Positions 6,772-55,559 of a DNA stretch of 55,559 nt are shown here, piece after piece. The notes beneath the pieces are model-generated. The model made no database searches. It was not told the DNA's origin and saw nothing but the letters and a program-made list of their open reading frames with translations. The translations under genes were made by a program, and so were the position numbers. Position 1 is the first letter of the stretch, and each line of letters begins with the position of its first letter. The DNA is from a virus (taxonomy: Duplodnaviria > Caudoviricetes), in IMG/VR virus record IMGVR_UViG_3300037440_000150, positions 1 to 55,559 of that record. The stretch is one strand, 5' to 3'.

Positions 6772-7367
6772 TCGGTGCCGTCATGGGGTTTCTTGCCGAG
6801 TACGGCGTCGAGTCGATCGGCGGTGATTTTGAGCTGGCGTATCTCGTGTTCTCGTACGGTCGAGGGGATCTCGTGGTTGATTGCCGCCGCTTCAAGGGCG
6901 CGTTGGTAATCGCGCCGCGCAGCCTCGCACGCCTCCCTCAGCGCGTCACGTTCAACCTTCAGCGCGTCGCGCTCGACAAGCAGAGCACTTACCCTGGATG
7001 CGTTGACAGAAGCGAGAGACAACATGTCGGGGTTATAGGCCCGCATCGTATCGATGGACCGTCTCAAATCCGTCCACCTGTCGTCAGTCATGACCATGGC
7101 CTTGGCTTGCTCAATCTGGCGCTCGATGTCCAGTGGCGTCGTGTGTCGCATCGGGTCTTCCATGCTCGTCTCCTCTTGGTTGAGTTTTCCCCATCGCTGT
7201 TGGGGGGTGAGTTCTTTCCGTTTGACTGTCTTGACACAGCCATCGCATGATGGGCTGAAGCATTGCCAACGCTCCGAAACAATGCCTGGGTCCATGAGCA
7301 GCTTCACGACGCTCACGCGCACCATCAGCTTTCCGCACTTGTAGCACGTAATTGGACTCGCCATCAT
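6741..7367 (-). CDS. Hypothetical protein (N-terminal zinc ribbon, C-terminal coiled coil)
   Basis: CYKCG...WQCFSPSC; coupled to integrase stop. Confidence 0.5.
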   Translation of the reverse strand: MMASPITCYKCGKLMVRVSVVKLLMDPGIVSERWQCFSPSCDGCVKTVKRKELTPQQRWGKLNQEETSMEDPMRHTTPLDIERQIEQAKAMVMTDDRWTDLRRSIDTMRAYNPDMLSLASVNASRVSALLVERDALKVERDALREACEAARRDYQRALEAAAINHEIPSTVREHEIRQLKITADRLDAVLGKKPHDGTESCQHRANSG

Positions 7368-8497
7368 CGCGTCTCCTGTGTTGAACCCATCTGCATCGGT
7401 GTCCCGTACCCCAACCGCCTCGCCGCCTCGCGCTCTTCCTCGATGTATTCGATCGGCTGCGCGATGTAGTGCCGCATCAGCGTCTCCACCCGATCCCCGA
7501 TCCACTCCGACACGAACGGGACCGGGAACATCCCCACCCACGTAGACGCCCGCCACTTCCGCAACGTGTGGAACGGCTTGGCGTAGACCTCGAGTCCGGC
7601 CTTCTGCACGAGGCCGGGTATGTGGCGGTCCAGGTCAGTGCCGGGTATCCCGACGACCTTTCCGACCATGGCGCGGTGCAGGTCGCGGGCTCCCAGGTCG
7701 CCGACGATCAGCTCACCCTCGGCTTCGTCGCGCAGTTCCAGCAGGATTCGCTCCAGCACCGGGCTCATGTAGACCTCGCGTCGCCGCCGCTTCGTCCCTG
7801 TGAGGCCCTCAGAGTCCCACACGGCGATTCTGGCGCGGTCCCAGTAGATGTGGTCCCATCGGGCCTCCCTCGCCTCCAGGTCGCGTCTCATGCCTCCCAG
7901 GGAGCACAGGGCGAGCAGGGCCCGCCATGCAGGGGACGGGGCGGAGTCGATGAGCCGGAGCACCTCCTCGCCAGTGTGCATCTTCCAGGGCCGCTCAGAC
8001 TTCCTGGCCGAGCCCACGAGGTGCCGCCAAGGGTTCTCGTGGATGAGCTTCCGATCCACCGCCCAGCTCAGGATCACCTTGGCGTTTCGGACGTGGGCGC
8101 AGACGGTCTGGGCCCCGAGTCCCTTCTCGCGCAGGTGCGTCACCCAGCGGTCGCCGTCGTGGGGCGTGAGCGATCGCAGTCGGGCCTTGTCGCCGACCAC
8201 CTCGCGCATGTACGAGATCGTCGTCTCGTGCATCGTCCGCGTGCCCGCCGCCAGATCAGACCGCATCGCGACGTAGCGCTCACACCACTGGCTCAGCGTC
8301 ATCGGCGCCGACGGCGCCACCCAGCCAGCGTTCAGCTTGGCGGCGAGTTCCTGGCACCAAGCCAGCGCCTCGCGATTCGTCATGCCGGACGTGAGGCCAC
8401 CACTCTTGAAGCCTCGTCGGCCAAGGTGGTCGGTCCAGTGTGCGCGCCAGTAGACGCGGCCCTTGGTGCGGTTGGTTCCGAGGCGGACGACGATCAT
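7364..8497 (-). CDS. int: Tyrosine integrase
   Basis: N-terminal arm-binding and SAM-like domains; GMRR, FHTLRK, WIGD...RHY catalytic motifs. Confidence 0.92.
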   Translation of the reverse strand: MIVVRLGTNRTKGRVYWRAHWTDHLGRRGFKSGGLTSGMTNREALAWCQELAAKLNAGWVAPSAPMTLSQWCERYVAMRSDLAAGTRTMHETTISYMREVVGDKARLRSLTPHDGDRWVTHLREKGLGAQTVCAHVRNAKVILSWAVDRKLIHENPWRHLVGSARKSERPWKMHTGEEVLRLIDSAPSPAWRALLALCSLGGMRRDLEAREARWDHIYWDRARIAVWDSEGLTGTKRRRREVYMSPVLERILLELRDEAEGELIVGDLGARDLHRAMVGKVVGIPGTDLDRHIPGLVQKAGLEVYAKPFHTLRKWRASTWVGMFPVPFVSEWIGDRVETLMRHYIAQPIEYIEEEREAARRLGYGTPMQMGSTQETR

Positions 8498-14627: not shown

Positions 14628-14681
14628 GGCGGTCTCCTGAACCACACCGTACTACGTTGGTGGTCGGGGCTTCGACGCGAG

Positions 14682-14710
14682 TTGACTACGGGCGACCACC
14701 AGTGTAGTCT
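14682..14710 (+). promoter_or_regulatory. Promoter for TIGR-Tas unit, TTGACT-N17-TAGTCT
   Basis: -35 at 14682-14687, -10 at 14705-14710; followed by 10-bp leader stem (14717-14726 / 14760-14769). Confidence 0.7.
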
Positions 14711-14790
14711 AGGGGCGTGCGACCGTACCCGAACACCAGAATATGCCGCCGCGTGCGCAACGGTCGCACAGCCAGCGCCGTGGCGGCTCA

Positions 14791-15070
14791 GCCAGACGAA
14801 GTGATCGAACATGAGCCGAGAGCGAGCCAGAGATTCAGATTGAACAGAATCGATGAGCGAGCCATCACGCACGATTGCACAAACCGTGAGAGCGGAGCCA
14901 CTATCGCGGATTGAACATTCACAGTGAGCGAGCCACGATTTGGGATTGAATAGGAAAGGGAAGCGAGCCACACGCGGAGATTGAATACACCTCGGGAGCG
15001 AGCCAGTCGTTCGGATTGAACAGAGGACACGAGCGAACCAGATTCCACGATTGCACTTTTGAACGGAGTG
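14791..15070 (+). ncRNA. TIGR-like dual-repeat guide array, upstream half (7 full units plus 1 degenerate)
   Basis: GAGCGAGCCA-N8-GATTGAACA-N8 period; first repeat at 14820, 14855, 14890, 14926, 14961, 14996, 15031. Confidence 0.88.
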
Positions 15071-15073
15071 AAA

Positions 15074-15919
15074 ATGACCACAGCAGAGACCATGACGCGA
15101 CTACAGGAACTCGACAAGGCCGTCAAGCTCGACACCGGCAAGGCCGGGCGGCTTCTCGGGCGACAGGAAGCACGCTTCCTCGTCGATGCGTACTACCAGA
15201 TTCAGGACAACCGCAAGCGATCCGACGCGCAATCGCGCACGCTCGCGGAGGCCGGCGAACCACACACGGTCATCGACTACCTCGGCGAGATGTCGCGCGA
15301 GTTCGAGACGATGATTAAGGGCCATCTCAATCGCTACTCCAAGGCGCACCCTGTCGGCGCATGGTCGCGCGAGCAGAAGGGCATCGGGCCAGTGACCGCA
15401 TCCGGGTTGCTCGCTCACATCGACATCGAACGCGCACCCACGGCGGGCCATATCTGGCGGTTCGCCGGACTTGACCCGACGGTCGAGTGGAAGAAGGGCG
15501 AGAAGCGTCCCTGGAACGCCAAGCTCAAGGTGGTGTGCTTCCACATCGGCGAGTCGTTCGTGAAGATCCACACGCGGCCCGACGCCTACTACGGCGATCT
15601 GTGGGCGCAGCGCAAGGCGTGGGAGACGGAGCAGAACGAGGCTGGGAAGTACGCCGACGCTGCCGTGGCCAAGCTGGAGAAGTTCAAGATCGGGAAGGAC
15701 ACGGAGGCGTACAAGCACTACTCGGCTGGTCGTCTGCCGCCCGCCCACGTTCACGCGCGTAGCAAGCGCTGGGTGGTGAAGCTGTTTCTGTCACACTGGC
15801 ACCACGTCGCGTACCAGGATCGCTACGGGAAGCCGCCGCCGCGTCCGTACGTGATCGAGCACATGAACCACGTCGATCTGACCTACCCGCCTGGGTGGGA
15901 AGCCATGTCTCCGGATTGA
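15074..15919 (+). CDS. tasA: TasA-like Nop-domain RNA-guided protein (IS110/Nop58-related, no nuclease domain)
   Basis: LVDAYYQIQDNR coiled coil, KGIGPVTA...IWRFAGLDP, HARSKR...KLFLSHW...PPRPY; no N-terminal DEDD RuvC or HNH; flanked by array. Confidence 0.85.
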   Translation: MTTAETMTRLQELDKAVKLDTGKAGRLLGRQEARFLVDAYYQIQDNRKRSDAQSRTLAEAGEPHTVIDYLGEMSREFETMIKGHLNRYSKAHPVGAWSREQKGIGPVTASGLLAHIDIERAPTAGHIWRFAGLDPTVEWKKGEKRPWNAKLKVVCFHIGESFVKIHTRPDAYYGDLWAQRKAWETEQNEAGKYADAAVAKLEKFKIGKDTEAYKHYSAGRLPPAHVHARSKRWVVKLFLSHWHHVAYQDRYGKPPPRPYVIEHMNHVDLTYPPGWEAMSPD

Positions 15920-16326
15920 ACACGTATCAAGAGCGAGCCATCCGACGCGATTGAACATCGGCATCGAGCGAGCCAAGTCCCGTGATCGAACAGAACTTGG
16001 GAGCGAGCCACATGCCGAGATTGAACAGACTGCATGAGCGAGCCACGCTCCTCGATTGAACAGCCACGACGAGCGAGCCACAAGTTGAGATTGAACAGAT
16101 GGACTGAGCGAGCCATCTATGCTGATTGAACACGCACGGCGAGCGAGCCAGAGCGGGGGATTGAGCAAATACGCAGAGCGAGCCACGAATCGTGATTGAA
16201 CAGGAGATCCGAGCGAGCCACCGTTCATTGATTGAACAGGGTGCAAGAGCGAGCCATGTGGCGGGATTGAACAGATGCAGAGAGCGAGTCAGCGCTGGAG
16301 ATTGAACATGACCCCTGAGCGAGCCC
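15901..16326 (+). ncRNA. TIGR-like dual-repeat guide array, downstream half (12 units)
   Basis: GAGCGAGCCA at 15931, 15966, 16001, 16036, 16071, 16106, 16141, 16176, 16211, 16247, 16282, 16317; alternating GATTGAACA; all spacers differ. Confidence 0.9.
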
Positions 16327-16347
16327 CGGGTTTCGGCCCGGGGTTTT
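16324..16347 (+). terminator. Rho-independent terminator closing the array
   Basis: CCCCGGG-TTTCGG-CCCGGGG followed by TTTT. Confidence 0.75.
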
Positions 16348-16366
16348 CTACTCCAGACCCCCTCAA

Positions 16367-16402: not shown

Positions 16403-18757
16403 ATGGCCAAGGCGATCGACATAGCGGCCCTGAAGTCGCTCAGCTTCGAGCAGTTCGACGAGAAGTACCCCCAGTTCATCAAGGGCAAGCCGAACATCGA
16501 CCGTCTGCGGGCCATGAGCCTGCTCAACGAATCGCTCGTCTTCGATGTCCAGACCGGCAGGGCCGACATGCCTCGCGGCGTCCGGATCGACGACCTTCGC
16601 CGCAACCTCATCGACTCGGCAGAACGGGTTTACGGGGTCGATCCGAGGCACCTCCTCGATATCAGGACCGACGCCGAGAAGGCCGCCGATGTCCTGAAGT
16701 CATGGACTGACGCGCCCGAGAAGATATTCGAGGATATCGACGAGGAACTGAAGGCTGTCGAATCGGCCTTCAACCAGTGCGATCTCGGTCTCGACAACTA
16801 CCTTGAGGAGCGGGTCCGGGACGTACAGGCCACCGCAGATGAGCGACGGCATCGGTCGGCCGAGATGGACAAACGCTTGGGAAAAGCCGCCCGGGAGCGG
16901 ATCGAGAGGGTCCGCTCCCTGATCCGGCGGGTCCTGAGACTTCGTCAGCGAGTCCGTGAGGACGCGCCGGCCTTCATGCTCAGGCACGAAGAGCCGCGCG
17001 GCCTTGAGAAACTGCGCGTAGAGAACGGCGATTGGCCCAGGGTGAGGCGGCCCGAGGCGTTGGAGGCCGCCAACCTGGGGCGCTACATGGCCTACGTGTG
17101 CCGGTCCGGCATGGCGCAGGAGGGCGACGGGCCGGAGGAGCGGATTCTGAGCTTCGGCCCCCACCACTACAAGATGTTCGGCGACATCTGGCAGAGCGAG
17201 AACAGCGTCCACATCGGGTTTCCGCTCGGCTCGAACAACCTTGAGCGGATTCAATCGGGAGTCGGTCTGTTCAAGGGCGTGACCCGGTGTCGTGGCGGCG
17301 TGGTGATCGCCCCGCCCGCGCACAGCAAGACCGAGGTGGCGCAGGCATGGACGATGCGTCGGATCGCGCGCAACCCTGCGACCCAGGGGACGTATCTGCA
17401 CAACCGCGAGGACATGGCCCAGACGAGCCTTGCCTACATCGCGTCGGCGTTCAAGCCCGACAACGCGATGGGACGGCGGAATCTGGCGATCTTCCCCGAT
17501 CTGGCGATCGCGACCTCCAATGCGTCCGAGCTTCGGATGCGGCGCGAGAATCGCAAGAAGACCCCGACGCTGGTGGGCGCGGGCGTGATGAGCGACCATC
17601 AGGGCTCGGACAACGACTTCCAGGTCTACGACGACGCGGTACCGCAGTCCGACGTTCACGAGGAATCGGTGCGCGAGCGCCGCATCGCGAAGATCAACGG
17701 GACGTGGCGTCGGCGTCTGAGAGGTCAGAAGCATTTCACGCTGGTGGTCTGCACGCTCTGGCATCACGCAGACTACAACGCGACGCTCATAAGGCAGGCC
17801 AAGGAGGGGAAGGCTCGGTTCCTGGTGAGCCGCCAGTGGGTCGGCGGTCCGAGGACCACGCCGAAGTTCCACGCGCTCTGGGATCGAATCCCGGCGTCGG
17901 AGCTTGAGGCGATCTACATGGAGATGAACGATCCGGTCCTGTGGTCATGCACCTTCATGGCGGACCCGAGGCCGGAAGAGTCGCGCATCATCCGCAAGCT
18001 TCGTTTCTACGACCCCGACGCGGATGAGCACCGGCGGTTCATGATGGCCGGTCCGACCTTCTGGCTGAGTCTCGACCCGTCGTACTCCAACCGTAAGGAA
18101 GCGGATCGGTCCGGGCTGGTCTACGCGGCGCTCGGACTGGTCAGCCGCGAGGAATGGAGCGAAGGCATCCGGGTCGTCACGACCGAGATGCGGCTTCGGA
18201 TCATGGACGCGATCGAGTTCCACGCGACCCAGGCGGAAGGCGCCGACGCTGTCAAGATGTACGCCCTGACCCACAAGGTCGATTCGGTGCTGGTGGAGGC
18301 GCAGTCCGGCGGGATCGGTTCGCTCCAGTGGATCGAGCGCGAGACGAACTGCCGAGTTGAGGGGTATAAGCCGGGCTCCAAGGACAAGGAACTGAGGCTC
18401 AGGATGGCGGCGAAGTGTCTTGAGAACCATTCACAGGCCAAAGTGACGGGCGCGGTGGTTGAGTTCCCGGGCGAGGTGCGGGACGGGAAGATCGTCGGTC
18501 CGGCGATGTCGGTGCGTGGTCTGGTGGGACAGATCCTTGAGTTCGGCATGACGGGCAACGACCACATGCTGGACGCCTGCACCCAGTTGGTGATATACCT
18601 GATGCACGAGCTGAGGCCGGGCGGCGGCGAGTTCAGTGAGCGTGTCCGGGAGTCGATCTCGCGCCAGGGCGACCCGAGGCTGAAGGAACTGGTGAAGTCG
18701 TGGCTTCGTCCTCGGGAGGATGATCGAGTTGAGCAAGAGTGGAATCTGCTGAACTAG
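16403..18757 (+). CDS. terL: Terminase large subunit with long N-terminal extension
   Basis: APPAHSKT Walker A variant, QVYDD Walker B, CTLWHHADY, SLDPS, VLVE, DHMLDACTQ nuclease motifs. Confidence 0.88.
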   Translation: MAKAIDIAALKSLSFEQFDEKYPQFIKGKPNIDRLRAMSLLNESLVFDVQTGRADMPRGVRIDDLRRNLIDSAERVYGVDPRHLLDIRTDAEKAADVLKSWTDAPEKIFEDIDEELKAVESAFNQCDLGLDNYLEERVRDVQATADERRHRSAEMDKRLGKAARERIERVRSLIRRVLRLRQRVREDAPAFMLRHEEPRGLEKLRVENGDWPRVRRPEALEAANLGRYMAYVCRSGMAQEGDGPEERILSFGPHHYKMFGDIWQSENSVHIGFPLGSNNLERIQSGVGLFKGVTRCRGGVVIAPPAHSKTEVAQAWTMRRIARNPATQGTYLHNREDMAQTSLAYIASAFKPDNAMGRRNLAIFPDLAIATSNASELRMRRENRKKTPTLVGAGVMSDHQGSDNDFQVYDDAVPQSDVHEESVRERRIAKINGTWRRRLRGQKHFTLVVCTLWHHADYNATLIRQAKEGKARFLVSRQWVGGPRTTPKFHALWDRIPASELEAIYMEMNDPVLWSCTFMADPRPEESRIIRKLRFYDPDADEHRRFMMAGPTFWLSLDPSYSNRKEADRSGLVYAALGLVSREEWSEGIRVVTTEMRLRIMDAIEFHATQAEGADAVKMYALTHKVDSVLVEAQSGGIGSLQWIERETNCRVEGYKPGSKDKELRLRMAAKCLENHSQAKVTGAVVEFPGEVRDGKIVGPAMSVRGLVGQILEFGMTGNDHMLDACTQLVIYLMHELRPGGGEFSERVRESISRQGDPRLKELVKSWLRPREDDRVEQEWNLLN

Positions 18758-25998: not shown

Positions 25999-27972
25999 AT
26001 GCAAAGCGACAACGGACTTTCCCTCATCGAGTCCGATCGCGTCTCTTCCCTGTCTGGGGAACGGATGCGGTGCGGCAATGATGAGGCGCCCGCATCCACC
26101 CCGGACAGCTTGGCCGATGATGAGCGTGGTCAGTTCGGCGAAATCGCCGCACTCCAGGACCATCTCGCGCTCTACGGGGTAGAGAACAAGTGGATCGTCG
26201 ATGTCGGCGCGTACAACGGCAAGCTGTTCTCCAACTCGCTTGCGTTCAGGCGGCGGGGATGGCACACGGTCCTGATCGAGTGCGAGCCGGAACTCGTCAA
26301 GGCGATTCTGGCCGATCTCGGGCCCGGCGATCGTCACGTCAATGTGATCGAGGCCGAAGTCGAGCCTGATCGAACGAGCTTCAACTGCCTGGACAATCTT
26401 CTGTCGCATCTCGGACGCACGGCGGATGAGCGCGGTGATGCGGTGCCGGACGTGCCGGAAGACTTCGACATCCTGTCGATCGACATAGATGGCTACGACT
26501 ACCACGTGTGGGAGTCGCTGGAGCGGTTCCGGCCCAGGTTCGTCATCATCGAAACCCGCGATATTCGTGCTCCGGGCGCCCGCGACAGGTTCGTGCCGGA
26601 GTACGGCGAGCCGATCGCCGCGCTCCCGTCCGGCGCTCTTGAGCATCCCTACCTGGCCGTGACCACGAAGCCCTCGATGGCCGACCTGGCGCGCGAGAAG
26701 GGATACCTCGTTCTGTTCGCATCGCAGTGCAACACGGTGTTCATTCGCAAGGACGTGGCGGAGTCGAGGCCGGTCAGGTTGAATCTGGGGTCGGGCTTCA
26801 CGTCGATCGGCGGCTTCCTGGCCGTCGATTCGTGGAACGGCGAACCCGTCTATCCGCTCGATTGGCCTGATGGCTCGGTCGATGAGATCCGCGCGAGCCA
26901 CGTGCTTGAGCACTTCGGGCATCGCCAGACGCTGCTGGTTCTGGAGGAATGGTGCCGTGTCCTCAAGCCAAACGGGATCATGCGTATAGCGGTCCCGTCG
27001 ATCGAACAGATCATGGCCGAGATGGACCGGGGCACGCCGTTCAACATGATCGAGATGTTCATCACCGGCGGTCAGGTGGACGACGACGACCATCACGGCA
27101 CCGTGTTCACTCGACAGAAGCTGGCAGCGCAAATGCACCTGTCGGGCTTGTGGAAGCTGGAGGACTGGCAATCCGAGATCGTCGATTGCGCCTCGCTGCC
27201 GGTCAGCCTGAATCTCAAGGGCACCAAGCGGACCTTCGAGGTGAAGCAGAACCCGCGCTTGACGTGCGTGCTGAGCCAGCCCCGCATCGCGTTCATCGAC
27301 CAGGTGCATTGCGTGTACCGCGGCCTGCGATGCCTGAGCAACCGCGAGATGTACGGCAAGGGACCGGCTCCGGTCGTTGACGACGTGATCGACTGCGGCG
27401 GCGCCTTCTGGGAGAAATACATCTCTGGCGGCATCAAGGCGGCGATCGAGCGCGGCGCCGACCTGATTCTGTTCTGCGACTACGACGGCGTGTTCCAGCC
27501 CGAGGACGTGGAGCGGCTGTATTCGTACATGCAGGACAACCCGGACGTTTCGGCCGCGTTCGCCGTCCAGGTGAGCCGCCACCACGACAACCCGCTCGTC
27601 TTTCAGGACCACATCGTCTACACGGACGACGAGACCCGCGTGCAGCTCGGTCACTTCGGACTCACGATGATCCGGACCCAGATATTCGAGGACTTCCCAA
27701 GGCCGTGGCTGTGGTCGGTTCCGAATCCGGACACCGGCGAGTGGGACACGAAGGGTCATTGCGACGCCGACATTCTGTTCTGGCGCCAGCTCGCCGAGTA
27801 CGGCCACAAGGTCGTGCAGCTCGGCGACATCCAGGTCGGCCACATGGACCTGTGCGTGAAGTGGCTGACCCCTCGCGGCATCGCGTACCAGCCGCTGCGG
27901 CACTACAAGACTTACGGGAAGCTGCCTAATGCCAAGTTCAACCCCGAGGCTCACAAGGCGAAGCAGTCATGA
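25999..27972 (+). CDS. FkbM-like methyltransferase + class I SAM methyltransferase + GT-A glycosyltransferase fusion
   Basis: VDVGAYNG...SNS and LSIDIDGYDY; LNLGSG...SHVLEH...RVLKPNG...VP; LFCDYDGVF...HFGLTMI...DILFW...VGH. Confidence 0.8.
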   Translation: MQSDNGLSLIESDRVSSLSGERMRCGNDEAPASTPDSLADDERGQFGEIAALQDHLALYGVENKWIVDVGAYNGKLFSNSLAFRRRGWHTVLIECEPELVKAILADLGPGDRHVNVIEAEVEPDRTSFNCLDNLLSHLGRTADERGDAVPDVPEDFDILSIDIDGYDYHVWESLERFRPRFVIIETRDIRAPGARDRFVPEYGEPIAALPSGALEHPYLAVTTKPSMADLAREKGYLVLFASQCNTVFIRKDVAESRPVRLNLGSGFTSIGGFLAVDSWNGEPVYPLDWPDGSVDEIRASHVLEHFGHRQTLLVLEEWCRVLKPNGIMRIAVPSIEQIMAEMDRGTPFNMIEMFITGGQVDDDDHHGTVFTRQKLAAQMHLSGLWKLEDWQSEIVDCASLPVSLNLKGTKRTFEVKQNPRLTCVLSQPRIAFIDQVHCVYRGLRCLSNREMYGKGPAPVVDDVIDCGGAFWEKYISGGIKAAIERGADLILFCDYDGVFQPEDVERLYSYMQDNPDVSAAFAVQVSRHHDNPLVFQDHIVYTDDETRVQLGHFGLTMIRTQIFEDFPRPWLWSVPNPDTGEWDTKGHCDADILFWRQLAEYGHKVVQLGDIQVGHMDLCVKWLTPRGIAYQPLRHYKTYGKLPNAKFNPEAHKAKQS

Positions 27973-28706
27973 GCGTCGTCTGGATCGCCAGCTATCCGAG
28001 GTCGGGCAACACGTGGTTGCGATTCCTGCTCTGCGGCTACTTCTACGGACGGCCCGAGTCGCCCGAATACGTGTCGTCCAGAATCCCGGACATCCACGCG
28101 ATCGAGGAACACGATCGGGACGCCTTTCTGCGCCGCCTGGGAACCGGTCGCGTGCTGGTGAAGACGCACTTTGTTCCCAGCCGGATTCCCGCAAAGGACA
28201 TCGCCGAAGGGTACATCCACATCCAGCGCGACACAAAGGATGTGTTCAGCTCCGCGGTTCGCTACGATTTGGGAGGCGACCCAGATCCATTTGAAGTGCG
28301 CCGGTACGGAGACGAGTTCCTTTCTTCGCTTGGCTCTCTTCGCTGGCACGCGCTCGGTTACGGGTCGGCGGTCATGCACGATGGCCTATGGGCGGACAGC
28401 GGCCTGTCGGGGTGCCATATCACCTACGAGGATCTGCGCTCCGACACCTTCACCACGATGGAGAGGGTGCTGGAGTTCCTTGGTGAGCCTGTGGACGAGG
28501 ATCGTCTTGATCAGGCGATTGAATGGGCGTCGCTTGGGCGCATGCGCCGAATGGAGGATGATGGAGGCAAGTTCCACCACATGACGCTCAGGGAGCGGTT
28601 CATCGGCGACGGCGTGATCGGATCGGTGATTGGTGACAAGCGTCTCGATGCGGCGTTCGATGCCCTGGCGGGCCGCAATGGTACAGGACATCGCAGATGG
28701 CCCTGA
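27969..28706 (+). CDS. Sulfotransferase
   Basis: IASYPRSGNTWLRFLL 5'-PSB loop, VKTH, RDTKDVFSS 3'-PB, YEDL. Confidence 0.88.
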   Translation: MSVVWIASYPRSGNTWLRFLLCGYFYGRPESPEYVSSRIPDIHAIEEHDRDAFLRRLGTGRVLVKTHFVPSRIPAKDIAEGYIHIQRDTKDVFSSAVRYDLGGDPDPFEVRRYGDEFLSSLGSLRWHALGYGSAVMHDGLWADSGLSGCHITYEDLRSDTFTTMERVLEFLGEPVDEDRLDQAIEWASLGRMRRMEDDGGKFHHMTLRERFIGDGVIGSVIGDKRLDAAFDALAGRNGTGHRRWP

Positions 28707-55432: not shown

Positions 55433-55559
55433 GGCTCCTCGCTCGCCAGCCTGGTCAGGCACGCCGTCACTTGATCGAACCCCAGGCCGATCTTGTCCAC
55501 GTCACGCTCGAATGAGTCGAACATCTCCTCGGCCCAGCCCCAACGCTTGTGCGTGATCG
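55433..55559 (+). repeat. Terminal overlap identical to 1-127
   Basis: Direct base identity. Confidence 0.95.

Follow-up and report, generated by a model that had tools for sequence, protein, structure and literature searches.

TIGR-Tas systems were first described in 2025 by Faure et al. (PMC12045711). According to this description, two alternating repeats of 8-12 nt and short paired spacers form arrays on either side of the tas gene; the first edge repeat of an array is 5'-degenerate, and the last edge is followed by a terminator. Tas proteins free of a nuclease are named TasA in the same nomenclature. Described members include the phage-borne FpTIGR of Flavonifractor plautii (PMC12045711), SpTIGR-TasH of Salicola phage CGphi29 (PDB 9w03, 21kl and others) and TaTasR (PDB 9mty). 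A preprint of September 2026 (10.64898/2026.09.09.750476) catalogues 20,096 tas loci and 6,685 annotated arrays; according to it, a TasA binds DNA in E. coli as directed by its guide and represses transcription reversibly. We examined a locus in the viral contig IMGVR_UViG_3300037440_000150 of IMG/VR (Duplodnaviria; Caudoviricetes); the whole contig of 55,559 bp is the window referred to below. Very probably, the locus is a TIGR-TasA system of the dual-repeat type that forms an accessory cassette in a complete phage genome with an integrase gene. Its membership in TIGR-TasA, judged from the sequence and from a predicted protein model, is close to certain. It is real but not new, an added member of a kind of system described in 2025 and intensively investigated since then.

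The array consists of 20 tandem units within 14785-16326, divided into two sub-arrays by a 281-aa open reading frame (ORF), tasA (Table 1). Each unit is composed of an edge repeat GAGCGAGCCA (10 nt), spacer A (8 nt), a loop repeat GATTGAACA (9 nt) and spacer B (8 nt), in this order. The unit length is 35 nt in 18 of the 20 units and 36 nt in the two others, of which one has an extra nucleotide in its edge (14890) and the other a spacer A of 9 nt (16211). An earlier interpretation from the letters alone (the sequence-only reading) had claimed about 20 units of 35 bp with alternating repeats and two 8-nt spacers, placed on both sides of the ORF, and this was confirmed. Its assignment to a TIGR-Tas-type dual-spacer array also agrees with the published dual-repeat anatomy, with a period of 35 rather than about 36. 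The bounds that it gave, 14682..16347, hit the place of the locus but not its start: the first unit begins at 14785, and at 14682 a weak promoter-like site is found.

Fourteen exact copies of the edge and four with one mismatch lie in 14820-16326, in addition to the copy at 14890 with its insertion. The loop was found in 13 exact copies, in six with one mismatch and in one with two. Hence, 27 of the 38 scored repeat copies are exact; several of the mismatched copies are among the upstream repeats. Outside the array no exact copy of edge or loop occurs in the 55,559-bp genome, and nine matches with one mismatch were detected there. All 40 spacers are mutually different. For the composite edge-N8-loop, 14 matches at ≤1 mismatch were counted, compared to 0.00 expected from 100 dinucleotide-preserving shuffles. 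Tandem Repeats Finder calls the downstream array with a period of 35/70. Long antisense 'ORFs' over the arrays are by-products of the repeats.

The ends of the arrays correspond to the published anatomy. The first edges of both sub-arrays are 5'-degenerate with the 3' half AGCCA kept (GGCTCAGCCA at 14785, TGGGAAGCCA at 15896). The upstream sub-array terminates with the pseudo-edge GAGTGAAAAT, the downstream one with the edge GAGCGAGCCC at 16317, which runs into a hairpin. Both repeats open with GA and close with CA (edge ...CCA, loop ...ACA), and thus have symmetric box C-like and box D-like ends; each spacer is located directly 5' of the invariant G opening either repeat. A CRISPR array has a single repeat of about 23-50 nt and spacers of similar length. 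The locus does not have this form, as two repeats of 9-10 nt alternate with 8-nt spacers.

Within the edge, positions 3-8 (G-C) and 4-7 (C-G) are able to pair. For TasR, pairing of the half-edges of the mature guide with each other and covariation of these pairs were described (PMC12045711). In unit 8 a two-sided change from G7-C4 to A7-U4 was observed, with A7 from the edge at 15031 and U4 from the 3' half-edge GAGTG of the pseudo-edge at 15066. The edge at 16282 carries the exchange C8>T, giving a G3-U8 pair. Covariation was also found in the IMG/VR relatives L004 (U4-A7) and L007 (A3-U8); these are individual cases from a small sample.

The gene tasA has a Shine-Dalgarno sequence GGAG 5 nt ahead of its ATG. 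The motifs GIGP..A, W.FAGL.P, H.R..R...K.FL.HW and P.PY named in the sequence-only reading were all located in the protein: GIGP at 103-106, WRFAGLDP at 128-135, HARSKRWVVKLFLSHW at 227-242 and PRPY at 256-259. PF02371 (IS110-family C-terminal) is the sole Pfam domain (E 7e-6, residues 102-138), and PHROG 4285, a family with the label 'transposase', was matched with E 9e-45. With phmmer against the PDB chains, TasR (9mty_A) was found at E 6.7e-17 and TasH of Salicola phage CGphi29 (21kl and others) at E 1e-9; beyond TasR and TasH nothing was detected below E 0.1. An AlphaFold2 model was calculated from a 35-sequence alignment of TasA and 34 homologues (53-59% identical), the latter selected for long contigs and varied sources among the 119 non-self matches listed. 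The model (pLDDT 87.1, pTM 0.83) has 11 helices and no strands of three or more residues; N-terminal helices (residues 3-91) are followed by the RNA-binding domain. In the Foldseek search against the PDB, TasH and TasR chains took all of the ranks 1-10 (E 2.3e-7 to 2.1e-6, TMq 0.50-0.62), in line with the Nop-fold Tas identity proposed from the motifs. The next matches were the bridge recombinases IS621 and ISCro4 (E 5e-3 to 4e-2), and 11 matches reached E ≤ 0.001. Neither the Pfam scan nor the predicted model contains an HNH or RuvC domain, as had been stated before, and there is no space for one; the array reaches the start codon. Thus, the protein is a TasA.

The protein family is large. 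At E ≤ 1e-3, 5,296 proteins were found; the 119 non-self matches listed have 262-300 aa and at most 62% identity, the nearest 61-62%, and many homologues carry the annotation IS110 transposase. Distant relatives are present in 76 GenBank phage records, with 25-28% identity among the 40 listed. Mycobacterium phages account for 71 of the 76; Salicola phage CGphi29 is among the rest. The 35-sequence alignment has 56 invariant columns, and by its own listing TasA does not deviate in any of them. The ORF is intact, and its third-position G+C (GC3) of 0.83 is in line with the neighbouring phage genes. Rfam gave only a sub-threshold match to ar45 (29.5 bits, gathering threshold 40) on the opposite strand within the coding sequence, which was taken as chance.

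Compared with the described systems, the locus shares with FpTIGR a solo nuclease-free Nop-fold Tas, alternating short repeats, paired short spacers, location on a phage and arrays on both sides of tas, in which the first edge is 5'-degenerate and the last one precedes a terminator. It differs from dual-repeat systems of this type, FpTIGR being compared by its published description (PMC12045711), in the 35-nt instead of the 36-nt unit and in spacers of 8 nt instead of the usual 9 nt. The edge of the SpTIGR-TasH array, which has been studied by experiment, is AAGCGAGCCA and thus nearly identical to GAGCGAGCCA. In both systems the spacers have 8 nt and the last edge merges into the terminator stem, and the proteins have a homologous Nop domain (E 1e-9, 27% identity) with a conserved Tyr/His processing pair. 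However, SpTasH carries an N-terminal HNH nuclease and cuts DNA, whereas the TasA investigated here has no nuclease. Furthermore, the loop of SpTIGR is AAGACAACCA (10 nt), its unit has 36 nt, and only a downstream array is present within the stretch examined. TaTasR is the closest solved sequence match (E 6.7e-17) and has the architecture of coiled coil and Nop domain as well as the box C-like CCA at the edge end in common with the locus; it differs by an N-terminal RuvC nuclease, 9-nt spacers and repeats starting with UG instead of GA. With the bridge-RNA recombinases IS110 and IS621, the protein has the C-terminal fold that binds RNA in common (PF02371; Foldseek matches at E 5e-3 to 4e-2). 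These enzymes, however, carry a catalytic domain of the DEDD type, are guided by one structured bridge RNA instead of a tandem guide array, and serve to move an insertion sequence. The nuclease-free CRISPR effectors of type IV and type V-M are a functional analogy (PMC12045711): they are borne by plasmids or phages, bind under RNA guidance without cleavage and are thought to interfere with rival elements. In contrast to the locus, their proteins are unrelated, single long spacers address one strand, and a PAM is needed.

For guide maturation, SpTasH is reported to use two residues of a C-terminal loop, Y289 and H296, to cleave its precursor (PMC13421893). In the HMMER alignment, Y259 and H266 of TasA are aligned with these two residues (motif YVIEHMNH). 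In the 35-sequence alignment H266 is invariant, and position 259 is occupied by Y or F. The TasA clade is mixed regarding unit length, with 35 nt for L003, L005, L007, G001 and L116 set against 36 nt for L001, L002 and L004.

The arrays are closely interlocked with tasA. The pseudo-edge at the end of the upstream sub-array contains the GGAG ribosome-binding site and overlaps or abuts the ATG. At the other end, the coding sequence for the last TasA residues extends over the opening edge and spacer A of the downstream sub-array, and the TGA stop lies within the first loop repeat (15914-15922). Overlap or abutment of array and tas was found in four of seven IMG/VR relatives: in L003 and L005 the upstream array ends at the start codon, and in L002 and L007 the downstream array starts inside the tas 3' end. 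The preprint likewise describes that arrays can lie within the ends of tas and that this may couple maturation to translation (10.64898/2026.09.09.750476). As TasA-dependent maturation would cut the tasA mRNA at both ends, a negative feedback on TasA appears conceivable.

Two candidate signals flank the locus (Table 1). A 16-nt imperfect inverted repeat (14651-14666 / 14693-14708, 88% complementary) spans the candidate promoter. The terminator-like hairpin folds at -22.9 kcal/mol, and eight of 200 shuffles fold equally well; its 5' arm overlaps the terminal edge repeat. The leader 14651-14787, located between divergent genes, contains four inverted repeats, including a perfect 10-nt inverted pair GTGCGACCGT/ACGGTCGCAC with a distance of 33 nt. 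These may be operator or leader structures.

Table 1 Features of the TIGR-TasA locus, with positions in the window
Feature	Position	Strand	Basis or details
Weak candidate promoter, TTGACT-17 nt-TAGTCT	14682..14710	+	Direct reading; putative
Upstream TIGR sub-array, 8 units	Units 14785-15065, terminal pseudo-edge 15066-15075	+	Repeat search, register, shuffles
tasA, 281 aa, nuclease-free Tas (Nop-fold) protein	15074..15919	+	Pfam, PDB sequence search, AlphaFold2, Foldseek
Downstream TIGR sub-array, 12 units	Units 15896-16316, terminal edge 16317-16326	+	Repeat search, register, shuffles
Intrinsic-terminator-like hairpin	16321..16349	+	7-bp G+C core 16324-16330 / 16337-16343, then UUUUCU

Together, these features suggest the following course of events. 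Together with the arrays on either side, tasA would be co-transcribed on the plus strand, with the transcript ending at the hairpin; separate transcription units are hard to fit because the arrays overlap both ends of tasA. TasA would bind this precursor and cut within each edge by means of Y259 and H266, so that about 20 tigRNAs of 35 nt are released, each composed of a 3' half-edge, spacer A, loop, spacer B and the 5' half of the next edge. For this step we rely on SpTasH and on the 36-nt RNAs pulled down with a dual-repeat TasA. Structures and biochemistry of TasR and TasH indicate that a TasA dimer with one tigRNA might read a contiguous target, with spacers A and B paired to opposite DNA strands. 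The target would span 16 bp; should the invariant G after each spacer pair as well, it would span 18 bp with GC at its centre. In the TasR layout box D directly follows the spacer; by homology, the invariant G at the start of either repeat may act as a constant ninth position of the guide. Binding without a nuclease could then block transcription or replication of the target, as shown for another TasA in E. coli. By this analogy, steric silencing is the mode of action that we favour, with some reserve. In the sequence-only reading the function of TasA was called unresolved. This has been partly overtaken by the repression observed in E. coli (10.64898/2026.09.09.750476).

Several observations weigh against this interpretation. 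The repressing protein (MbTasA) is a different one, and no natural target was found, so that the biological role is conjecture. Dual-repeat tigRNAs are described in the preprint as uniformly 36 nt long and positioned for the Y/H pair (10.64898/2026.09.09.750476), in contrast to the 35-nt unit of the locus. RNA runs containing the sequence were looked for, and none is listed. A sigma-70 consensus scan called no promoter here; the candidate at 14682 was missed because its second hexamer matches at only three of six positions. The hairpin 16321-16349 was left unlisted by a simple terminator scan, probably because the longest stem consumes part of the U run. Finally, the units at 14890 and 16211 with their length change of 1 nt may be defective.

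The guides were examined regarding possible targets. From the 8-nt 3' overhangs reported (PMC12045711) it follows that the target strand reads spacer A and then the reverse complement of spacer B. With A+rc(B), rc(A)+B and three control orders, none of the 20 guides matched the phage genome outside the array at ≤1 mismatch; single self-matches with two mismatches occurred in true and control geometries alike. Exact spacer halves with gaps of 0-12 gave no self-match, and neither did the version with central GC at ≤2 mismatches. One of the 20 guides, that of unit 15931, was used for a scan of IMG/VR. It yielded 53 matches in true geometry, distributed over about 40 unrelated contexts, compared to 44 in control order, which is chance level. 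Short spacers are also described to be swamped by false positives (10.64898/2026.09.09.750476). On the loci matched by this guide, the remaining guides showed no excess. One contig, represented by the loci L020 and L023, was matched by a second guide with one mismatch; as the control loci gave two such cases, this was taken as chance. No cross-targeting between this phage and G001, described below, was detected in either direction. The G+C content of the spacers is 57.6% compared to 62.8% for the genome, and 42.7% compared to 49.6% in G001. As no guide target was detected in the phage genome, the guides are probably directed at host genes or at rival mobile elements; for the role of the system, we regard inter-element competition and host control as about even.

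Variation between strains was observed in a second sediment metagenome (run X2). A contig of a close relative covers tasA from 15448 to 15906 with nine differences in 459 nt (about 98% identical). An array contig of the same run (211 nt, depth 3.6) covers 15918-16128. Its differences, as far as listed (five are not shown), all fall into the four spacers of the units 16036 and 16071 (16036-16105), and among those listed none is located in the repeats or in the three preceding units (15931-16035). In these two units both spacers are entirely different from those of the phage. This one short contig of low depth points to the replacement of whole units between strains, both spacers together.

The exact pattern edge-N8-loop-N8-edge was found in one IMG/VR contig, G001 (112,783 bp, terminal repeats, 100% complete, G+C 49.6%). 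Its array of 12-13 units has the edge GAGCGAGCCA, the loop GATTGAGCA and a period of 35 nt, and is located on the minus strand at L008 7611-8057, corresponding to G001:C1 at about 18125-18520. No tas gene was detected in G001, neither by tblastn over the 13-kb locus around the array nor by a search of the whole record. The family HMM, applied with filters off, reached no better than E 0.64 on all six-frame ORFs of G001, compared to 3e-138 for the window as positive control; of PF02371 only a fragment of 11.8 bits was found. Neighbours of the array are a gene of a PHROG labelled DNA topoisomerase and then a ResIII/DEAD helicase. The array of G001 may serve in trans as an orphan array, or it may be the remnant of a lost cassette; one literature search on orphan TIGR arrays gave nothing relevant. 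The pattern variant with the loop GATTGAGCA is present in G001 and in L116, a locus on a 27.5-kb IMG/VR contig (890-3076, minus strand). L116 encodes a Tas of 371 aa with two insertions, which is 37-41% identical to the TasA of the phage over the aligned segments. Behind it lie about 30 units of the 35-nt type, so this array is far longer than that of the phage investigated here.

The carrier genome, from a sediment metagenome, is one contig classed as having direct terminal repeats and as 100% complete. The exact 127-bp terminal direct repeat (1-127 and 55433-55559) fits a circular assembly or true terminal redundancy. Third-position G+C supports 67 ORFs. PHROG matches were obtained for four of the 52 ORFs tested (integrase, large terminase, methyltransferase domain, RusA) and Pfam matches for eight of 53. 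The integrase gene at 7364-8497 lies on the opposite strand to tasA at a distance of 6.6 kb. It is the sole basis for the word 'temperate' in the sequence-only reading, and we speak of an integrase-bearing phage instead. For the large terminase (TerL; region 16403-18757), one relative with 33% identity was found in a set of 5.8 billion proteins, none by tblastn against 50,697 phage records and none in representative prokaryote genomes. A megablast of the locus against the same phage records gave nothing. No tRNA gene was found in the genome, and the exact array pattern had no match in the representative prokaryote genomes. None of these searches with locus, TerL, tRNA and array pattern pointed to a host. 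The cassette, which has its own terminator-like hairpin, is flanked by a block of small leftward genes on one side and by the terminase gene on the other. Accessory 'moron' genes of phages often have their own terminator as well. The backbone of the phage is nearly without relatives, compared to thousands for TasA; thus, the cassette appears to be a horizontally moving accessory module. Apart from the locus, two ORFs at 25999-28706, within a plus-strand block of large genes, are notable: one of 657 aa with matches to methyltransferase and glycosyltransferase domains, followed by a 245-aa sulfotransferase (PF00685, E 3e-14). This pair is unusual for a phage and may modify a glycan.

Some of the annotations encountered would fit a different origin of the locus. 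PHROG 4285 and PF02371 by their names, and homologues annotated as IS110 transposase, could indicate the remnant of an IS110-family transposase beside an unrelated tandem repeat. This explanation is effectively refuted by the all-helical protein of 281 aa, in which Pfam scan and model reveal no DEDD/RuvC-like catalytic domain, by Tas structures scoring about four orders of magnitude better than IS621 in Foldseek, and by repeats in the exact register of TIGR dual spacers. Somewhat more could be said for a decaying relic, poorly or not at all transcribed, whose guides are no longer used, as no promoter was called, two units deviate in length and mismatches occur in several of the upstream repeats. 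We nevertheless consider decay very improbable, since the ORF is intact with the shared residue at 56 of 56 invariant columns, 27 of 38 repeat copies are exact, compensatory changes keep the edge pairing, and the GC3 of tasA resembles that of its neighbours.

An active system might also be used differently from the silencing of rival elements. The same machinery could silence host chromosomal genes (e.g. for defence or metabolism) or time the phage life cycle, and both options are listed as open in the discussion of the preprint (10.64898/2026.09.09.750476). The G+C content of the spacers tracks the carrier genome in both cases examined, this phage and G001, and this fits targets of similar composition, for instance in the host. 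However, direct regulation of phage genes is unlikely with no self-target found, and the spacers by which a near-identical strain differs in some units are more readily explained by an arms race than by regulatory targets that stay the same. Taken together, this use of the guides is possible, though we consider it rather unlikely. Clearly less probable is the idea that TasA bends or marks DNA at sites set by the guides and thereby aids integration, recombination or partition instead of repressing. Bending was raised by Faure et al. on the basis of a DNA bend of about 180 degrees and of tasA operons linked to ParB (PMC12045711), and the phage does have an integrase and RusA. Yet a ParB-family match was found in none of 53 ORFs and so not near tasA either, the integrase is 6.6 kb away on the other strand, and 20 different guides are hard to square with a single attachment site.

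Returning to silencing by a nuclease-free TasA, the observations could be combined into a more far-reaching picture. Maturation by TasA would throttle its own synthesis, whole units would be replaced, and orphan arrays such as that of G001 would load TasA in trans, in parallel to virus-borne orphan CRISPR mini-arrays. The system would then be a self-limiting, fast-evolving silencing module which other phages can borrow. We regard this as speculative and, as a whole, doubtful.

With this locus, a TIGR-TasA system with 20 guides is available on a complete, apparently circular phage genome that has an integrase, whereas most catalogued TIGR loci are located on fragments. Its native context bears on questions of the field, namely the targets of the guides, the gain of units and the natural role of the nuclease-free TasA. 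In addition, the 35-nt unit departs from the stated '36-nt' rule and bears on the coupling of guide length to the processing site.

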